From positions 1 to 37,376 of IMG/VR virus record IMGVR_UViG_3300027632_000001: a stretch of 37,376 nucleotides of DNA; one strand, written 5' to 3'. The stretch is from a virus. Shown piece by piece: positions 3,135 to 37,376 of the stretch (positions are counted from its first letter, which is position 1; every line of letters starts with the position of its first letter). A model generated the notes under the pieces. The model made no database searches and had not been told where the DNA came from. It saw only the letters and a list, made by a program, of their open reading frames with translations. The position numbers and the translations under genes are program-made.

Positions 3135-3335
3135 CCCTTTAGCTCTGCACGTGGCCACGTGCGGGGCTCCCCCATAGGCTCGGCCAAGCCTGTGGTTTGC
3201 TGTAACCGCCCGACTTCAAGGGGCATGTGTTGAAACCAATTCCCCTAAGGGGGAGCACCTGGTGGATACACTGCCCCGAGAGACGGCGTAGACTCTACCC
3301 CAAAACTCTCTCAAAACCCCTTATAGGTAACTCAA
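3135..3335 (+). promoter_or_regulatory. 200-nt structured untranslated leader upstream of the major capsid gene
   Basis: No plausible ORF. Hairpins at 3147-3162, 3172-3195 (9 bp) and 3241-3254. Alternative pairing of CCCC 3242-3245 with GGGG 3220-3223 or 3250-3253. Confidence 0.5.
3147..3162. repeat. Perfect 16-bp palindrome GCACGTGGCCACGTGC
   Basis: Self-complementary 16-mer 13 nt after the scaffold stop. Confidence 0.9.
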
Positions 3336-4262
3336 ATGGCGAATTTCACTATCCTCGGTCACGGTCAGGTCAATGGCGCTGGCGCGTCCGACGCTCTGTT
3401 CCTGAAACAGTACAGTGGCGAAGTCCTGGCTGCCTTCGAGCAGACCAATGTTATGATGCCTATGCATTCCGTGCGTAGCATTAACTCCGGTAAGAGCGCG
3501 CAGTTCCCCGCGACCTCGCGTGTATCTGCCGGCTACCACACTCCTGGTGCGACCCTGGTCGGCCAGCAGGTGAACCACGCTGAGCGTGTCATCACCATCG
3601 ACGACATGCTGGTCGCCGATGTCTTCATTCCTGAGATTGACGAAGCCAAAGAGCACTTTGACGTGCGTTCGACCTACAGCATGGAGACCGGCCGTGAGCT
3701 GGCCTCTGAGCTAGACAAGCACGTCCTTCAGACTGCTGTCCTCGCGGCCCGCGCTTCCGCTACCATCACTGGTGGTGACGCTGGTTCTAAGCTGGTTGAC
3801 GCTGGTTATGCGACGACTGGTGCTACCATTGCTGCTGGCATCTTCGCTGCTGCCCAGAAGATGGACGAGAAGAACATTCCTGAGAATGATCGTTATGCCG
3901 TCCTGCGTCCTGCTCAGTACTACCTGATGGCTCAGACCACCGACGTGCTGAACCGCGATTGGGGTGGCAGTGGCGTGTACTCGGAGGGTTCCGTACTGAA
4001 GGTTGCTGGTATCAGCATCGTGAAGTCGAACAACCTGCCTTCGACCAACATCACCACTGGTCCTGCTAAGTATCAGGGTAACTTCGCCGCTACTCAGGGT
4101 CTTGTGTTCCACAAGAGCGCTGTTGGTACGGTGAAGCTGAAGGACATGAGCGTCCGTATGGACTATCAGCCCCGCGAGCTTGGCACCTTGATCGTTGCCA
4201 AGATGCTTGTAGGTTCTGGTATCCTGCGTCCTGAAGCTGCCGTTGAACTGGCGAGCGCCTAA
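3336..4262 (+). CDS. Major capsid protein, T7 gp10A-like
   Basis: 308 aa. ALFLKQYSGEVLAAFEQT...VRSINSGKSAQFP...ERVITIDDMLVADVF parallels T7 gp10 (LALFLKVFGGEVLTAF...VRSISSGKSAQFP). Confidence 0.94.
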   Translation: MANFTILGHGQVNGAGASDALFLKQYSGEVLAAFEQTNVMMPMHSVRSINSGKSAQFPATSRVSAGYHTPGATLVGQQVNHAERVITIDDMLVADVFIPEIDEAKEHFDVRSTYSMETGRELASELDKHVLQTAVLAARASATITGGDAGSKLVDAGYATTGATIAAGIFAAAQKMDEKNIPENDRYAVLRPAQYYLMAQTTDVLNRDWGGSGVYSEGSVLKVAGISIVKSNNLPSTNITTGPAKYQGNFAATQGLVFHKSAVGTVKLKDMSVRMDYQPRELGTLIVAKMLVGSGILRPEAAVELASA

Positions 4263-4271
4263 ACCCAACAT

Positions 4272-4296
4272 GGGGGCCTTCGGGCCCCCCTTTTTT
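4272..4296 (+). terminator. Intrinsic terminator after the capsid gene (T-phi-like position)
   Basis: GGGGGCC-TTCG-GGCCCCC stem-loop plus C-TTTTTT. Confidence 0.85.
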
Positions 4297-7900: not shown

Positions 7901-7945
7901 ACTAGGGGCGTCCTGGGAAACCAGGGCGTCCTTCAGGAGAAACCA

Positions 7946-14214: not shown

Positions 14215-14219
14215 CAGGG

Positions 14220-14246
14220 AGGAGACTCCAAGGATGGAGTCCTCCT
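14220..14246 (+). promoter_or_regulatory. GGA-loop hairpin (CCAAGGATGG core), CsrA/Rsm-type site
   Basis: Stem of 7 bp, a 1-nt bulge, then 4 bp around loop AGGA/AAGGAT. 6 nt after the gp16-like stop. Confidence 0.6.
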
Positions 14247-14262
14247 TCCAACAGGAGACTTA

Positions 14263-17170: not shown

Positions 17171-17186
17171 GAGCCCTGAGGGGCTC
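17171..17186 (+). other. Hairpin GAGCCC-TGAG-GGGCTC
   Basis: 6-bp stem 8 nt after the stop of the 16726 gene. Confidence 0.5.
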
Positions 17187-17248
17187 TCTAAGACGCCTTT
17201 GGATTCCTTAGCTGTCTTAGACAACCCCTCAACCCTAGGTACAACACC

Positions 17249-17802: not shown

Positions 17803-18063
17803 ATGTCCAAAGCCGCAACACAAGAACAGATCGAAGCCTTGCACGGTGAGATCGCCAAAGCCCTGATGGTACAGCTCCGGGAGAATCCCACGGGCAGCAT
17901 CATCACGTCCGCCATCAACTTCGTCAAGCTCCACACTGTGGAAGTAGAAGACGAGGAGCCTGAGGAAGAGCCCGCAGCTCCCAAAGCTCCTAAGCGTAAA
18001 CCGAAGAAGCAGTCCATGGCAGGACTTGCAGACGAGCTAGAGGCAGCCTTAGGCGCCCGCTAG
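17803..18063 (+). CDS. terS: Putative small terminase subunit (gp18 position)
   Basis: 86 aa, directly upstream of the large terminase. Size is like T7 gp18. Positional call only. Confidence 0.45.
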   Translation: MSKAATQEQIEALHGEIAKALMVQLRENPTGSIITSAINFVKLHTVEVEDEEPEEEPAAPKAPKRKPKKQSMAGLADELEAALGAR

Positions 18064-18072
18064 CCAACCCCA

Positions 18073-18109
18073 GGCTAACTCACGGGTTCGACTCCCGGGT
18101 TAGCCACCA
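18073..18109 (+). ncRNA. tRNA-like acceptor/T-arm minihelix with encoded ACCA 3' end
   Basis: GGCTAAC (18073-79) pairs perfectly with GTTAGCC (18099-105). CGGG/CCCG stem with canonical 7-nt T-loop TTCGACT (18087-93). Then A-CCA (18106-09). No D or anticodon arm. Confidence 0.6.
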
Positions 18110-18158
18110 GATTCCTATGCTCTCCTGAGCTCCCTTCAACACAGCCCCGAGGTGATCC

Positions 18159-19871
18159 ATGGCTACCAAGAAGACCGAACCTCAAGTGGACCCTAGGTTC
18201 ACCAAGAGCTTCCAGCTGTTCCTCGCCTACATGTGGAAGGAGCTAGGACTCTCTCTACCCACCCCAGTCCAGCTAGACATCGCTGAGTTCCTACAGGATG
18301 GCCCTAAACGCCGCATGGTGAAAGGCTATCGAGGTGTAGGCAAGAGCTGGATCACAGCGTCGTACGTACTGTGGCGGCTCCTTAAGGACCCCCAGGAGCG
18401 TATCCTGGTGATCTCTGCGTCTAAGGACAGGGCTGACAGCTTCACGCGCTTCACGCGTAGGCTGATCGAAGACATGCCTATGCTGCATCACCTGAAGCCT
18501 CGCCCCGGGCAGGCCGATAGTGTCGTCAGCTTTGAGGTAGGACCTGCCGAGGCTAGCCAAAGCCCCTCGCTGAAGTCCGTAGGTATCGGTGGCCAGATCA
18601 CTGGCTCACGTGCCTCCATCATTATCGCCGATGACATCGAAGTCCCCAGCAACAGCCTGACCACCATGATGCGTGATCGCCTGGCTGAAGCTGTCAAGGA
18701 GTTCGACGCCATCCTAGTCCCCGGTGAGAACAGTGAAGTAATCTACCTAGGGACAGATCAGACAGAAGCTAGCCTGTACAAGCGTCTCCCTGAGCGTGGC
18801 TACGAGGTCAAGGTTTGGCCTGTACGTGTGCCCCGCGCAGATAAGGTACGTTCGTATGGCGACACCCTGGGACCCTACGTACGGCGTCTTATTGAGGACG
18901 AGGCAGAGCCTTGGTCGCCTGTGGACCCTGAGCGTTTCGACGAGGAAGACCTCCTGGAACGTGAAGCATCCTATGGTCGCTCCGGGTTCGCACAGCAGTT
19001 CATGCTTGATCCTGCCCTATCCGACATGGAGCGCTTCCCGCTTAAGTGTAGCGACGCCATGGTCCTGGATTCCGTGGACGTAGACCAGGCACCTACTGGA
19101 CTACAGTGGTCCACCAGGAAGGACGAGCGCCTTGAGCTGACTAACTATGGCCTCACAGGTGACCGCTGGCACAGAGCACTGATGCCTTCAGGAAGCGGCC
19201 TCGCACCCTTCACTGGCTCCGTCATGTTCGTTGACCCCTCAGGTAAGGGTTCGGATGAAACCGCCTGGGCCGTCGTTAAGATCGCCCTGGGGCGTCTCTT
19301 CGTGACAGCCATTGGGTCGTCTCGGGCTGGGTACGACGATGAGGTCCTCGACCAAATCGTAGCTACAGCCAAGGAGCACAAGGTCAACGTAGTCTCTGTT
19401 GAGCCTAACTTCGGTGGTGGACTCTTCAACAAACTCCTTCAGGGTGCCTTTGCTGCCCGTGGCTATGCCTGTGCGATCGAAGATGCACCTTGGGCTAAGG
19501 GTCAGAAGGAGATCCGTATCATCGAGACTATGGAGCCTCTACTGAACCAGCATCGTCTCGTCTTCTCGAGGGATGTGATCAACAAGGACGAACGTGTCCT
19601 ACATGACGACAGCATCCCGCCTCAGAAGAGGAAGGACTACATGCTGTTCCACCAACTCACCCGTATCACCAAGGAGCGTGGGAGCCTACGACACGATGAC
19701 CGTCTGGACGCGCTAGCAGGCGCCTGTGCCTACTGGACAGATCAGATGGCCCGTAGTGAGGCCCAAGCCGAGATGGACCACAGAGCGTCTCTTATGGACG
19801 CTGAGGTCGAAGCCTTCTTGGAAGAGATAGGTTCCGGCTCTGGTGGCCCTACCTGGAACAACCCTTGGTAA
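18159..19871 (+). CDS. terL: Terminase large subunit, T7 gp19-like
   Basis: 570 aa. ATPase-like region (...ILVISASKDRADSF..., IIIADDIEVP) and nuclease region (VMFVDPSGKGSDETAWAVV). Typical position and size. Confidence 0.92.
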   Translation: MATKKTEPQVDPRFTKSFQLFLAYMWKELGLSLPTPVQLDIAEFLQDGPKRRMVKGYRGVGKSWITASYVLWRLLKDPQERILVISASKDRADSFTRFTRRLIEDMPMLHHLKPRPGQADSVVSFEVGPAEASQSPSLKSVGIGGQITGSRASIIIADDIEVPSNSLTTMMRDRLAEAVKEFDAILVPGENSEVIYLGTDQTEASLYKRLPERGYEVKVWPVRVPRADKVRSYGDTLGPYVRRLIEDEAEPWSPVDPERFDEEDLLEREASYGRSGFAQQFMLDPALSDMERFPLKCSDAMVLDSVDVDQAPTGLQWSTRKDERLELTNYGLTGDRWHRALMPSGSGLAPFTGSVMFVDPSGKGSDETAWAVVKIALGRLFVTAIGSSRAGYDDEVLDQIVATAKEHKVNVVSVEPNFGGGLFNKLLQGAFAARGYACAIEDAPWAKGQKEIRIIETMEPLLNQHRLVFSRDVINKDERVLHDDSIPPQKRKDYMLFHQLTRITKERGSLRHDDRLDALAGACAYWTDQMARSEAQAEMDHRASLMDAEVEAFLEEIGSGSGGPTWNNPW

Positions 19872-19874
19872 CCT

Positions 19875-19910
19875 GAGGACACCTCTCACCCTTCGGGCCG
19901 AGGTGTCCTC
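19875..19910 (+). other. Long stem-loop (11-bp perfect stem) between terminase and endolysin
   Basis: GAGGACACCTC ... GAGGTGTCCTC with a 14-nt loop containing CCCTTCGGG. Confidence 0.65.
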
Positions 19911-20452: not shown

Positions 20453-20495
20453 AGACAGAAGGCCACAAATACTCTAGCAAGGAGCCTAGGGAACA

Positions 20496-20608
20496 CCCCA
20501 AGGCATAGCCAAGGATGGCACACCGCAGGCCCAGTACAGGGCAATTCTCGCAGTCACACACCCCAAGGCCTCCCAAGGCCACCACAGGCCTCCCCAAGAA
20601 CCCCAAGG
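20496..20608. repeat. Array of CCCAAGG motifs (5-6 copies, partly about 10-bp phased)
   Basis: CCCAAGG at 20497, 20562, 20572, 20602. CCAAGG at 20509. CCCAAGA at 20593. Confidence 0.8.
20537..20557. repeat. 21-bp direct repeat, copy 1 (CAGGGCAATTCTCGCAGTCAC)
   Basis: 18/21 identical to 20642-20662. Confidence 0.8.
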
Positions 20609-20641
20609 CAAAGCTAGGGGTACCTCTCCGCATGCCCACTG

Positions 20642-20662
20642 CAGGGCAGTTCTCGAGGTCAC
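20642..20662. repeat. 21-bp direct repeat, copy 2 (CAGGGCAGTTCTCGAGGTCAC)
   Basis: 18/21 identical to 20537-20557. Confidence 0.8.
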
Positions 20663-20664
20663 CC

Positions 20665-20703
20665 GGAGGGAGCGAGGCGGAACGCCGAGCGAGTACCCTT
20701 AGG
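20665..20703 (+). repeat. GC-rich 40-bp element, copy A (GAGCGAGGCGGAACGCCGAGCG ... CCTTAGG)
   Basis: 22-mer core identical to 20998-21019 and reverse-complementary to 25132-25153. Confidence 0.85.
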
Positions 20704-20710
20704 TACCTCA

Positions 20711-20751
20711 GCTTTATTTTGTTACTAAAATTCGAGCACCTTTTATATATA
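20711..20751. other. AT-rich island flanked by inverted GC-element copies A and B
   Basis: GCTTTATTTTGTTACTAAAATTCGAGCACCTTTTATATATA in an otherwise GC-rich non-coding region. Confidence 0.6.
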
Positions 20752-20802
20752 GGAGGAAGGCGCGAACCCCCCGTATACCCTTAGTCTACGAAGCCCAGGC
20801 CA

Positions 20803-20841
20803 CCATAGGCCACCGCTCGCCTTCGGCTCGCTCGCTCCGCG
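20803..20841 (-). repeat. GC-rich 40-bp element, copy B (variant, inverted)
   Basis: CCATAGGCCACCGCTCGCCTTCGGCTCGCTCGCTCCGCG aligns with copy D. Central hairpin changed from GGCG/CGCC to GCC/GGC. Confidence 0.75.
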
Positions 20842-20879
20842 CAGCACACACCTACACACACGAGGCTCACACGAGCTCT

Positions 20880-20963
20880 CCTTCAGGTTGCCTCAGGGTT
20901 CCTTAGCTAAGGTAGCCCTAGACACCGCAGGCCTGCTCAAGGGGACCTCAGGGCGTCCTCAGG
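20880..20963. repeat. Cluster of CCT(N)AGG short motifs
   Basis: CCTTCAGG 20880, CCTCAGG 20891, 20946 and 20957. More copies at 21024 and 21035. Confidence 0.7.
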
Positions 20964-20992
20964 TGGGTGCGGGTACTCCTTATAAGATAGGC

Positions 20993-21030
20993 GCGAGGAG
21001 CGAGGCGGAACGCCGAGCGGGTTCCTTAGG
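20993..21030 (+). repeat. GC-rich 40-bp element, copy C
   Basis: GAGCGAGGCGGAACGCCGAGCG at 20998-21019 followed by CCTTAGG 21024-21030. 45 bp upstream of the first early promoter. Confidence 0.85.
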
Positions 21031-21074
21031 TTTTCTTTAGGCGTAGGAGAGGACTACGCTCTGGCTTTTTGCAC

Positions 21075-21419: not shown

Positions 21420-21428
21420 AAATAAATG

Positions 21429-21457
21429 TTGACAAGCTACACAAGGACGTGTAGACT
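21429..21457 (+). promoter_or_regulatory. Sigma70-like promoter P2 (TTGACA-N17-TAGACT) with A-rich upstream tract
   Basis: Intergenic. Followed 9 nt later by the CTGAACGAA box. Confidence 0.7.
21437..21454 (+). promoter_or_regulatory. GGA-loop hairpin CTACAC-AAGGAC-GTGTAG inside the P2 spacer
   Basis: 6-bp perfect stem, hexaloop AAGGAC. Confidence 0.6.
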
Positions 21458-21502
21458 GTACCCACGCTGAACGAAACGAAACACCAACCAGAGAGAAAGA
21501 CC

Positions 21503-21943: not shown

Positions 21944-21949
21944 ATAAAG

Positions 21950-21967
21950 GTTGACAAGGACGTCAAC
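21950..21967 (+). promoter_or_regulatory. GGA-loop hairpin GTTGAC-AAGGAC-GTCAAC overlapping the P3 -35
   Basis: 6-bp perfect stem, hexaloop AAGGAC. Confidence 0.6.
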
Positions 21968-21979
21968 ACCAGATAGACT
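21951..21979 (+). promoter_or_regulatory. Sigma70-like promoter P3 (TTGACA-N17-TAGACT)
   Basis: AAATAAAGG upstream tract. CTGAACGAAC box at 21989-21998. Confidence 0.7.
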
Positions 21980-22015
21980 AGCTCCACACTGAACGAACAC
22001 ACAGAGACCAAGACC

Positions 22016-22356: not shown

Positions 22357-22545
22357 ATGAACACACTCATCGCAGCGGCCTACCTCTCAGCAACCTTAGC
22401 GGTACAGTTCGATGGTGGGTTCAACTTCCAGGGTACACAGGTAACCCTGAGTGCCGAAGCCTACTCGATCCAAGCTGACGTGAAGATAAAGGTTGACAAG
22501 CAAGGCAGGGTCGGGTACAGTAGACCACAGATCAACACCAACTAG
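22357..22545 (+). CDS. Early hypothetical protein (62 aa)
   Basis: In-frame ATG 22357 of ORF-track 22291..22545, just after the (CA)7 tract. Confidence 0.5.
   Translation: MNTLIAAAYLSATLAVQFDGGFNFQGTQVTLSAEAYSIQADVKIKVDKQGRVGYSRPQINTN
22493..22521 (+). promoter_or_regulatory. Sigma70-like promoter P4 (TTGACA-N17-TACAGT), embedded in the 22357 gene
   Basis: Good hexamers and spacing, located within coding sequence. Confidence 0.45.
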
Positions 22546-23585: not shown

Positions 23586-23597
23586 AAAAAAAAAAAA
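23586..23597. repeat. A12 homopolymer immediately upstream of the P6 -35
   Basis: 12 consecutive A. Confidence 0.9.
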
Positions 23598-23599
23598 GC

Positions 23600-23628
23600 T
23601 TGACACACTGCCTGAACTGCGATAGACT
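23600..23628 (+). promoter_or_regulatory. Sigma70-like promoter P6 (TTGACA-N17-TAGACT)
   Basis: CTGAACGAAC box at 23638-23647. Confidence 0.7.
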
Positions 23629-23676
23629 AACCCCACACTGAACGAACACAGACAGAGACACACACAGAGACACACC

Positions 23677-24870: not shown

Positions 24871-24894
24871 TAAGTGTATGTCTAGAAAGGGAAT

Positions 24895-27695: not shown

Positions 27696-27761
27696 GCATC
27701 ACACAGTCAGGGAGCAGGAGGCACCCACCAAACAGACCAAGAAAAAAGATTAAAAAAAGTG

Positions 27762-27790
27762 TTGACAAGGAAAGCGGACTGAGATAGAAT
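27762..27790 (+). promoter_or_regulatory. Sigma70-like promoter P9 (TTGACA-N17-TAGAAT)
   Basis: A-rich upstream tract. CTGAACGAAC box 27800-27809. Confidence 0.7.
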
Positions 27791-27839
27791 GTACACACAC
27801 TGAACGAACGCAGACACACAACAGAGAGAGACAGAGATC

Positions 27840-29845: not shown

Positions 29846-29853
29846 GAAAACCC

Positions 29854-29882
29854 TTGACACGGACGTCACCTTCCATTATCAT
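29854..29882 (+). promoter_or_regulatory. Sigma70-like promoter P10 (TTGACA-N17-TATCAT)
   Basis: CTGAACAAAC box 29892-29901. Weak hairpin TGAC-ACGGAC-GTCA at 29855-29868. Confidence 0.65.
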
Positions 29883-29916
29883 AATCCCGAGCTGAACAAA
29901 CACCGAGGAAAACAAA

Positions 29917-36013: not shown

Positions 36014-36025
36014 ACCTCAAATAAA

Positions 36026-36047
36026 AGCTTGACAAGGACGTCGAGCT
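36026..36047 (+). promoter_or_regulatory. GGA-loop hairpin AAGCTTGAC-AAGGAC-GTCGAGCTT overlapping the P13 -35
   Basis: 8-bp stem (one G-U), hexaloop AAGGAC. Confidence 0.6.
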
Positions 36048-36057
36048 CAGATAAGAT
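36029..36057 (+). promoter_or_regulatory. Sigma70-like promoter P13 (TTGACA-N17-TAAGAT)
   Basis: AAATAAAAGC upstream. TTGAGCGAAC box 36067-36076. Confidence 0.65.
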
Positions 36058-36103
36058 AGACCCACATTGAGCGAACAACACAACAGAGAGAGAGACACAG
36101 ACC

Positions 36104-36492: not shown

Positions 36493-36505
36493 AATCAAAA
36501 ACTGC

Positions 36506-36534
36506 TTGACAAGGACGTCTCGCAGCAATACTAT
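36506..36534 (+). promoter_or_regulatory. Sigma70-like promoter P14 (TTGACA-N17-TACTAT)
   Basis: TTGACAAGGACGTC as in P3 and P13. A-rich upstream. Confidence 0.65.
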
Positions 36535-36575
36535 AGTCTCGAACTTAGACGAACCCCGCACACAGAGACACCCCG

Positions 36576-37145: not shown

Positions 37146-37297
37146 AGGGGAAGCCCTGTACCTTTTTCTGAGAAGCAGGAGCCCAGCCCTTCCGCCAGTT
37201 GCGCGAGCAACGGTAACATCACTAGCGGCAACCCTCCTGCTTCTCCCCACTTTCTCATGTGTCTCTCCACTGTTGGGGCCTTCGGGCCCCTTTTTTT
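37143..37297 (+). ncRNA. Structured leader/candidate small RNA (about 155 nt) from phiD to the intrinsic terminator
   Basis: No plausible ORF. Hairpin ACAGGG-GAAG-CCCTGT plus T5 (37144-37167). 12-bp perfect long-range stem 37170-81 / 37234-45. GTTGC-GCGA-GCAAC (37198-37211). Terminator 37275-97. Confidence 0.45.
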
Positions 37298-37376
37298 CCC
37301 CAGGAGGGAATATGATACGGACAGCACAGCCCGAGCTCTACGCCGGGGACCACACTGAAGACCCTATACCTTTACA
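37250..37376. repeat. Terminal overlap, identical to 1-127
   Basis: Direct comparison of both ends. Confidence 0.95.
37275..37297 (+). terminator. Intrinsic terminator (same element as 26-48)
   Basis: GGGGCC-TTCG-GGCCCC plus T7. Confidence 0.8.

Follow-up and report, generated by a model that had tools for sequence, protein, structure and literature searches.

A tRNA-like minihelix between the terminase genes of a T7-like phage, a candidate RNase P processing element

Background

Longer transcripts of several kinds contain tRNA mimics, among them the mascRNA of MALAT1, MEN-beta and the viral 3' tRNA-like structures, which RNase P processes and which either acquire a CCA end or already have one. 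In bacteria, hairpins composed of an acceptor stem, a T stem, a T-loop and a 3' RCCA are efficient RNase P substrates, the RCCA pairing with the GGU of P15 (PMC11143913). Synthetic model hairpins of this design were introduced by McClain, Guerrier-Takada and Altman in 1987, as reviewed in PMC11143913, and the same review also cites the C4 RNA of phages P1 and P7 and the his operon mRNA as RNase P-processed. The t-elements of plant mitochondria carry the motif GGTTCRANYCC in a non-cloverleaf fold within mRNA precursors, where they direct the RNase P and RNase Z cuts that create mRNA 5' and 3' ends (Forner et al. 2007, PMC1920247); they are probably vestiges of tRNA genes (PMC1920247). In phage T7, a strong RNase site, R18.5, is located after gene 18 (PMC5592923). 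Here we describe a 37-nt acceptor/T-arm minihelix at positions 18073-18109 of IMG/VR record IMGVR_UViG_3300027632_000001, between the small (terS) and large (terL) terminase genes of a T7-like phage. The whole stretch analysed, positions 1 to 37,376 of that record, is referred to as the window. The minihelix is tRNA-derived or a tRNA mimic and not a coincidence, and it may serve as an RNase P processing element.

Results and discussion

Sequence and fold of the minihelix

The element lies on the + strand and reads, from 5' to 3', GGCTAAC (18073-18079), TCA (18080-18082), a T arm CGGG/TTCGACT/CCCG(G) (18083-18098), GTTAGCC (18099-18105), A18106 and CCA (18107-18109). GTTAGCC is the exact complement of GGCTAAC, and together they form a 7-bp acceptor stem that corresponds to tRNA positions 1-7 and 66-72. 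CGGG (18083-18086) pairs with CCCG (18094-18097) and encloses TTCGACT (18087-18093), a loop that fits T54-T55-C56-R57-A58-N-Y with a closing pair G53-C61. The discriminator A73 and the genomically encoded CCA (the RCCA motif, 18106-18109) follow the acceptor helix and are unpaired in all folds, as is the C/A-rich 5' leader CCAACCCCA (18064-18072; minimum free energy and centroid folds). The nucleotide at position -1, A18072, cannot pair with A73, so that the acceptor helix is exactly 7 bp long and not extendable.

The 37-mer has a minimum free energy of -18.5 kcal/mol (z = -4.1), none of 200 shuffled sequences was equally stable, and the minihelix also dominates the fold in its 121-nt and 95-nt contexts. 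Sequence and fold therefore agree with the initial annotation, which had described an acceptor/T-arm minihelix with a canonical T-loop and an encoded ACCA end. The 12-bp helix given there holds with a qualification: the minimum free energy structure does contain 12 pairs (7 in the acceptor, C18081-G18098, and CGGG/CCCG), but only 11 of them (7 + 4) are of the uninterrupted type, the twelfth requiring that U18080 and A18082 be bulged on the 5' strand. Within the junction TCA, the first base is a U8-like U, C18081 pairs with G18098, and A18082 is bulged. This irregularity is placed where positions 8-48 of a tRNA would exit the helix, and the 3' strand, CCCGG plus GTTAGCC, is 12 continuous nt, as are tRNA positions 61-72. 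Of the canonical tRNA features, the 7-bp acceptor, the 5-bp T stem, the TTCRANY T-loop, the discriminator and the CCA are all present, the fifth T-stem pair depending on the bulged A.

The minihelix is not a tRNA or tmRNA gene. ARAGORN called neither in the window, as had been predicted, Rfam gave no match at gathering thresholds and no tRNA match even at E <= 10, and only 3 nt separate the acceptor 5' strand from the T stem. A local match to mascRNA-menRNA (RF01684) stayed sub-threshold, at 13.5 bits against a threshold of 42.5 (E = 6.9). A resemblance to the end of elongator tRNA-Met had also been noted; base pairs 1-5 and A73 are indeed the same as in the E. coli molecule (GGCTACG...CGTAGCCACCA), but the likeness goes no further and no isotype can be inferred from it. 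A specific tRNA-Met identity was rejected; a phage tRNA-Phe (L062) has 6/7 acceptor pairs in common with the minihelix.

The window has a single copy of the motif GGTTCRANTCC, where 0.14 would be expected, and that copy is in the T arm of the minihelix: GGTTCGACTCC at 18085-18095 is a t-element-type GGTTCRANYCC motif, set in a non-cloverleaf fold between two cistrons. When the strict acceptor, T-arm and NCCA motif was searched on both strands of 400 simulated genomes (first-order Markov), no occurrence was found, and the analytic estimate for a strict minihelix with CCA is about 5e-6 per genome, so chance occurrence was rejected. An identical sequence is present in an independent contig of the Joint Genome Institute (JGI) collection, L029, and the minihelix is therefore not a one-off assembly error.

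The terS-terL junction in the late operon

The window is a complete T7-like phage genome, circularly assembled with a 127-bp terminal overlap (1-127 = 37250-37376), which gives a circular genome size of 37,249 bp. It encodes an RNA polymerase, single-stranded DNA-binding protein, exonuclease, portal, scaffold, capsid, tail tube, tail fibre, gp18-like terS, terL and endolysin, and has open reading frames (ORFs) of the size of a primase/helicase and of a DNA polymerase. All genes are on the + strand, and the only four phage-type promoters (AAGTTGGAGGCCCTCCTATAGAC), at 24894, 27620, 37085 and 37123, all lie outside the late region. The minihelix, in sense orientation, is consequently internal to a late transcript of about 20 kb, which bears out its earlier placement inside the late polycistron, and a phage promoter in the terS-terL spacer was rejected by the same promoter scans.

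The terS-like gene (17803-18063, + strand, 86 amino acids) ends in a TAG stop at 18061-18063. It has a weak match to Pfam DNA_Packaging_2 (T7 gp18) with E = 1.5e-4, under the curated cut-off, and its position is the same as that of the PF11123 genes in relatives. The spacer to terL is 95 nt long and the gap from the terS stop to G18073 is 9 nt, not 10 as first counted. Downstream of the minihelix lie a 3' trailer, GATTCC (18110-18115), a small hairpin GCTC-TCCT-GAGC seen in the spacer folds (18119-18130), a Shine-Dalgarno sequence GAGGTG (18149-18154) and terL itself (18159-19871; PHROG terminase large subunit, E = 2.8e-114), all on the + strand. A role as a stimulator of terS stop readthrough or frameshifting was rejected, as readthrough of the TAG would add 4 codons before TAA at 18076-18078 and there is no slippery site.

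The minihelix is followed by ACCAGATTCC, which has no T-run, and it is absent from the list returned by a terminator scan. It is thus not an intrinsic (rho-independent or T7 class I) terminator; true terminator hairpins occur in the window at 26-48 and 4273-4295. Strong G+C hairpins without a U-run are found at 3141-3277, 7902-7936, 14217-14249, 17177-17231 and 19875-19910, with z down to -5.45. Nearly every late intercistronic junction holds such a strong hairpin, the minihelix among them, which suggests that this phage processes or stabilises its mRNA extensively. The hairpin at 17177-17231 is long, has internal loops and resembles an RNase III site.

The nearest non-self TerL among 5.8 billion proteins is 58% identical, and relatives in IMG/VR are about 50% identical. 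All 27 IMG/VR relatives that have a terS-terL spacer (47-134 nt) have a G+C hairpin there, none of which is tRNA-like. In 23 of the 27 this hairpin is terminator-type, its T-run (T7) lying about 20 nt before the terL ribosome-binding site, and the other 4 are long plain hairpins; between variants, the terminator-type stems show compensatory changes. An example of the terminator type from this set (L001-L027) is AGGGGTCCCTTAGGGGACCTCTTTTTTT, about 50 nt upstream of terL, and L018-L021 instead have long hairpins in common together with a AATCGTAAGAGATACGCC-like motif. In relatives with the terminator hairpin, terL would be expressed by read-through past it. In the two closest relatives, L030 and L031, terS overlaps terL. 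T7 folds a 94-nt structured spacer after gene 18; R18.5, which is not annotated in the RefSeq T7 record, was placed there from this fold and PMC5592923. The hairpin slot is structurally conserved among relatives, and the minihelix occupies this slot of the relatives' terminator hairpin and of T7's RNase III site.

The junction also takes up insertions, namely a 435-amino-acid lipase gene in L069, a 66-amino-acid ORF in L070, and genes 18.5/18.7 in T7. The loci L069 20432-21665 and L070 18661-19864 belong to T7-like prophages integrated in Bradyrhizobium and Xanthobacter chromosomes, the insert in L069 being a GDSL lipase. In both prophages a tyrosine integrase adjoins a tRNA-Leu gene 8-9 kb downstream of terL. 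Host inference from tetranucleotides was uninformative, the top matches being homologous prophage regions.

Predicted processing by RNase P

We propose, with a probability of roughly 0.45, that the minihelix is a phage "t-element": cleavage by host RNase P on the 5' side of G18073, together with trimming of the 3' end to the CCA, would separate the terL-lysin mRNA from the upstream structural mRNA. In the late transcript it would fold into a 12-bp acceptor/T-arm stack with T-loop and 3' ACCA, which host RNase P would take for a pre-tRNA and cut between A18072 and G18073. The enzymes of tRNA 3' ends may then make an endonuclease cut in the GAUUCC trailer and trim exonucleolytically to the CCA, so that a 37-nt RNA is released; the trailer is a candidate single-stranded entry site for an RNase E-type endonuclease. 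Such tRNA-type punctuation would uncouple the fate of the terL-endolysin mRNA from that of the upstream structural-gene/terS mRNA. The former would start with a fully paired 5' helix or downstream of the minihelix, and the latter would have its 3' end 9 nt past terS. The sequence, the fold and its non-randomness, the sense orientation in the operon, the conserved slot and the lack of a U-run are observed; from these we infer that the late transcript runs through the site, that RNase P cleaves it there, that the 3' end is trimmed, and that terL expression or fitness may be affected.

The position of the predicted cut follows from the rules for RNase P cleavage of acceptor/T-arm hairpins (PMC11143913), and the minihelix has every feature of a minimal RNase P substrate: a coaxial helix of about 12 bp, a T-loop, a free 3' RCCA and an unpaired 5' leader. 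Of the roles first suggested for the element, a processing signal between the terS and terL messages is the one best supported by its context, that is, the hairpin slot, the position of R18.5 and these substrate features. The involvement of RNase Z that was suggested with it is unlikely, because CCA is an anti-determinant for that enzyme. The integrity of both strands, of the T-loop and of the CCA within a compact genome of 37 kb also counts for RNase P processing; an attachment-site (att) fragment would keep only the 3' strand (PMC9897764).

Searches for further copies returned little. Neither the T-loop motif nor a tRNA was found in any of 30 fetched relatives, and L029 was the only hit when 1.04 Mb of fetched loci were scanned with the strict motif; a relaxed scan that allowed G-U pairs and one mismatch was unspecific. 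Among the 2.9 million viral contigs of IMG/VR, there were no matches to the 26-mer, to the same acceptor with any T stem, or to a Met-type GGCTA/TAGCC acceptor, and the 58 loci recovered with a generic GGC...GGTTCGANTCC...GCCACCA pattern were all ordinary tRNAs on inspection.

Several points weigh against processing by RNase P. The minihelix is a singleton, its sole other copy (in L029) being identical, and no relative is closer than 58% TerL identity. The claim rests on one genome, and the minihelix may equally be an evolutionary accident, with which its rarity in the IMG/VR scans fits as well as with a function. Two bulges interrupt its 5' strand. In addition, a cut by RNase P would strip the upstream mRNA of a protective 3' hairpin, the opposite of what the relatives' terminator hairpins would do.

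Origin of the minihelix

A possible though somewhat unlikely alternative is that the minihelix is a relic not under selection: a piece of a tRNA-like gene from a cell, possibly the host, or else an att-type core with later rearrangement, came to lie in the plastic terS-terL junction and was deleted internally, any RNase P cutting being only a side effect. The search for a donor bears on this directly. The exact 22-nt 3' half had no match in 185,579 GTDB species genomes, and no exact donor was found in GTDB or JGI, which counts against a relic. A degenerate 22-mer pattern, GGTTCRANTCCNNNGTTAGCCA, gave 30 matches in the same genomes, nearly all in coding sequence and none called as a tRNA, from which it follows that the acceptor stem of the minihelix is rare among cellular tRNAs. 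Most of these matches (loci L032-L061) fall in the ..LDVWFDSGVSH.. motif of class I aminoacyl-tRNA-synthetase-like genes, for example in L033, L036, L037, L043 and L049, and show that T-arm-like strings occur in coding DNA.

A JGI metagenome scan, which failed to return the window's own contig, recovered only an Acidobacteriota-type family of tRNA-like genes and members of phage tRNA arrays. The former is a 113-nt gene present in L063 (6155-6267, - strand), L064 (3168-3280), L065 (379-491), L067 (3714-3826, - strand) and L068 (1240-1352), and in an Acidobacteriota metagenome-assembled genome, L035 (5093-5205, - strand). It has a normal acceptor, D arm and T arm and an encoded ACCA, but its anticodon arm is replaced by a rod of about 20 bp, a 42-nt insert in which CUUCAG pairs with CUGAAG. 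The gene scores 48.8 bits against the Rfam tRNA model and is missed by ARAGORN. An origin from tRNA-Sec was rejected, as the helix is 7/5 and not 8/5 and the 4-bp D stem is ordinary.

The minihelix agrees with this gene at both ends. At the 5' end the match is 8/8 (GGCTAACT), and at the 3' end it is 30/32 (GGTTCGACTCC[C/A]GGGTTAGCCACCAG[A/G]TTCC), including 5/6 bases of the 6-nt trailer, which is GATTCC in the phage and GGTTCC in the Acidobacteriota-type gene; one T-stem pair differs on both sides. The agreement beyond the bases fixed by the search pattern has an estimated p of about 1e-3, and as evidence of origin we regard it as suggestive, not conclusive. On the basis of these end matches, the minihelix is probably descended from a cellular tRNA-like gene of which positions 9-48 have been deleted. 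A direct repeat, TAGCCA, at 18061-18066 and 18101-18106 flanks most of the minihelix, its first copy overlapping the terS stop, and may be the footprint of a fragment insertion. The upstream TAGCC could also pair with GGCTA (18073-18077) to form an alternative 5-bp hairpin.

These end matches, which extend to trailer bases outside the mature RNA, also speak for an unselected relic. The 3' flank of the 113-nt gene contains transposases, a resolvase, a group II intron reverse transcriptase and Gabija-like OLD-ATPase/UvrD genes in three genomes, as expected of a mobile-element or integration hot spot, and the terS-terL junction is one that takes insertions (L069, L070, T7). The uniqueness of the minihelix among the 2.9 million viral contigs, for the patterns tried, points the same way. 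On the other side, a random deletion that spared the perfect 7-bp acceptor, the T arm with its canonical loop, the discriminator and the CCA, all free of point damage, is improbable unless it was recent or selected, the genomes of T7-like phages are compact, and in relatives a functional element fills the slot.

The suggestion of an att-like relic found partial support as far as origin is concerned, but the minihelix is probably not a simple att remnant. Fragments of tRNA at att sites keep only one acceptor strand (PMC9897764). In the minihelix the 5' acceptor strand and U8 are present as well, 3 nt before the T arm, and a 7-nt complement would lie 0-5 nt ahead of the T arm by chance with a probability of about 4e-4. 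The search for a tRNA source gave no exact match to the 22-mer in the 185,579 species genomes and none to the 26-mer in IMG/VR, the best match being the 30/32 to the 113-nt gene with its trailer. No integrase was found among the ORFs of the window, in which no integrase-sized unassigned ORF is left, and temperate relatives have their attP beside the integrase and tRNA-Leu gene, 8-9 kb from terL. The presence of both acceptor strands, the lack of an exact match in 185,579 genomes, the lack of an integrase and the distance of the relatives' integrase from terL together speak against a simple att remnant.

Phage-like tRNA arrays in L047 (about 3250-3347) and L066 (about 834-930, - strand), one of the two in an Acutalibacteraceae metagenome-assembled genome, contain a tRNA-like gene that ARAGORN also misses. 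It has an anticodon-loop-like CTTTAAA, whose anticodon UUA would read the UAA stop, and an GTTAGCCACCA end. These features suggest a possible suppressor tRNA.

Alternative roles

It is unlikely that the minihelix is a generic intercistronic hairpin, that is, a barrier to 3' exonucleases, an mRNA stabiliser or an attenuator whose likeness to tRNA is a by-product of its origin and in which RNase P has no significant part. The five other strong plain hairpins of the window and the plain or terminator hairpins in the same slot of relatives favour such a role, and at -18.5 kcal/mol the minihelix is as stable as the other late hairpins. However, it lacks the T-run of the relatives' hairpins, a hairpin of this set would by chance combine a TTCRANN loop with a 7|5 helix break and an NCCA end with an estimated probability of about 3e-5, and a substrate so canonical is unlikely to escape RNase P.

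It is very improbable that the excised 37-nt ACCA minihelix accumulates late as a decoy or inhibitor of host factors that recognise tRNA acceptor/CCA ends, for instance CCA-end-modifying defence toxins, the CCA-adding enzyme, an aminoacyl-tRNA synthetase or EF-Tu: although its acceptor-end features are all intact, its acceptor stem is very rare among cellular tRNAs and coincides with that of one peculiar tRNA-like gene family, and toxins acting on tRNA acceptor ends exist (for example MenT; PMC7450476), it would be expressed from the late operon and not early, a stoichiometric decoy facing catalytic toxins would have to compete with the entire tRNA pool, the phage has no partner gene, and the minihelix is a singleton. 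There is likewise little likelihood that it copies the acceptor/T domain of a host 113-nt rod-armed RNA, as a trans-acting decoy or inhibitor or an aminoacylatable cofactor; if true, it would be the first phage-encoded tRNA-acceptor mimic RNA.

Significance of RNase P processing

The kind of element proposed here, a tRNA-like processing element inside an mRNA, is known. A late-operon example in a T7-like phage was not found in the literature searched, nor a second example in the collections searched. If RNase P does cut at G18073, then mRNA punctuation by tRNA, as known in principle for mitochondria, for the t-elements of plants and for MALAT1, would also occur naturally in a double-stranded DNA phage. 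The element executing it would hardly differ from the synthetic minihelix substrates with which RNase P has been studied for decades. The slot after terS in T7-like phages could then hold any of three interchangeable devices (RNase III site, terminator hairpin or tRNA mimic), and the minihelix would offer a compact, portable module for RNase P-dependent mRNA cleavage. The link to the 113-nt cellular gene is a lead to the phage host and to how phages recycle tRNA fragments.

Other features of the phage genome

Sigma-70-like promoters of one family, TTGACA-17-TAGACT/TAAGAT followed by a conserved box (CCACACTGAACGAACA) downstream, were observed at 21424-21477, 21946-21999, 22484-22523, 23595-23648, 27757-27810, 29849-29902, 36024-36077 and 36497-36536. 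These lie in the early region and between the middle (replication) genes of this phage, which has its own RNA polymerase. The scaffolding-protein gene contains five tandem 15-nt repeats (AGAGCCTAAGGCAGA) at 2504-2578 that encode a repeated pentapeptide. After the endolysin gene there is a non-coding stretch of about 600 bp (20453-21068) with internal repeats at 20495-20662 and 20678/21006, in which the physical ends of the genome are probably located.

Comparison with known systems

The relation of the minihelix to the 113-nt gene is one of shared ends and a missing middle. The acceptor, U8, the TTCGACT T-loop, A73 and the CCA are identical, as are 4/5 T-stem pairs, the fifth being changed from U-A to G-C, but the D arm, the rod of about 20 bp and everything else between positions 8 and 49 are lacking in the minihelix. 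It resembles the tRNA 3' fragments of att sites in having a T arm, an acceptor 3' strand and a short trailer that resembles a cellular tRNA-like gene, and differs from them in its additional 5' acceptor strand, the absence of an integrase and of an exact match, and a location other than that in temperate relatives.

With the spacer hairpins of L001-L027 it shares the slot and a G+C-rich stem; those hairpins have a tetraloop-type loop and a T-run (T7), whereas the minihelix has a T-loop, ACCA and no T-run. Like R18.5 of T7, it is located just after the small terminase gene and before terL in the late polycistron. However, R18.5 is a long double-stranded RNase III substrate, and the minihelix is tRNA-shaped and only 12 bp long, compared with the about two helical turns (~20 bp or more) required by RNase III, as which it was rejected. 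For this reason a different nuclease, RNase P, is expected to act here. Unlike mascRNA and the viral tRNA-like structures, which are eukaryotic or belong to RNA viruses, it is found in a DNA phage, and mascRNA keeps an analogue of the anticodon arm.

In common with the plant mitochondrial t-elements, the minihelix carries the GGTTCRANYCC motif in a tRNA-like structure inside an mRNA, but it is set in a phage late operon, would be met by a bacterial RNA-based RNase P and has its CCA encoded, and most t-elements keep more of the cloverleaf. The RNase P model hairpins likewise have a 7-bp acceptor stacked on a T stem, a T-loop of 7 nt, a 5' leader that is single-stranded and an ACCA at the 3' end. 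The minihelix differs from them in being natural, in its location within a phage mRNA, in its long 3' extension, and in having 2-3 extra nucleotides that bulge from the 5' strand where positions 7 and 49 adjoin (the 7/49 junction).

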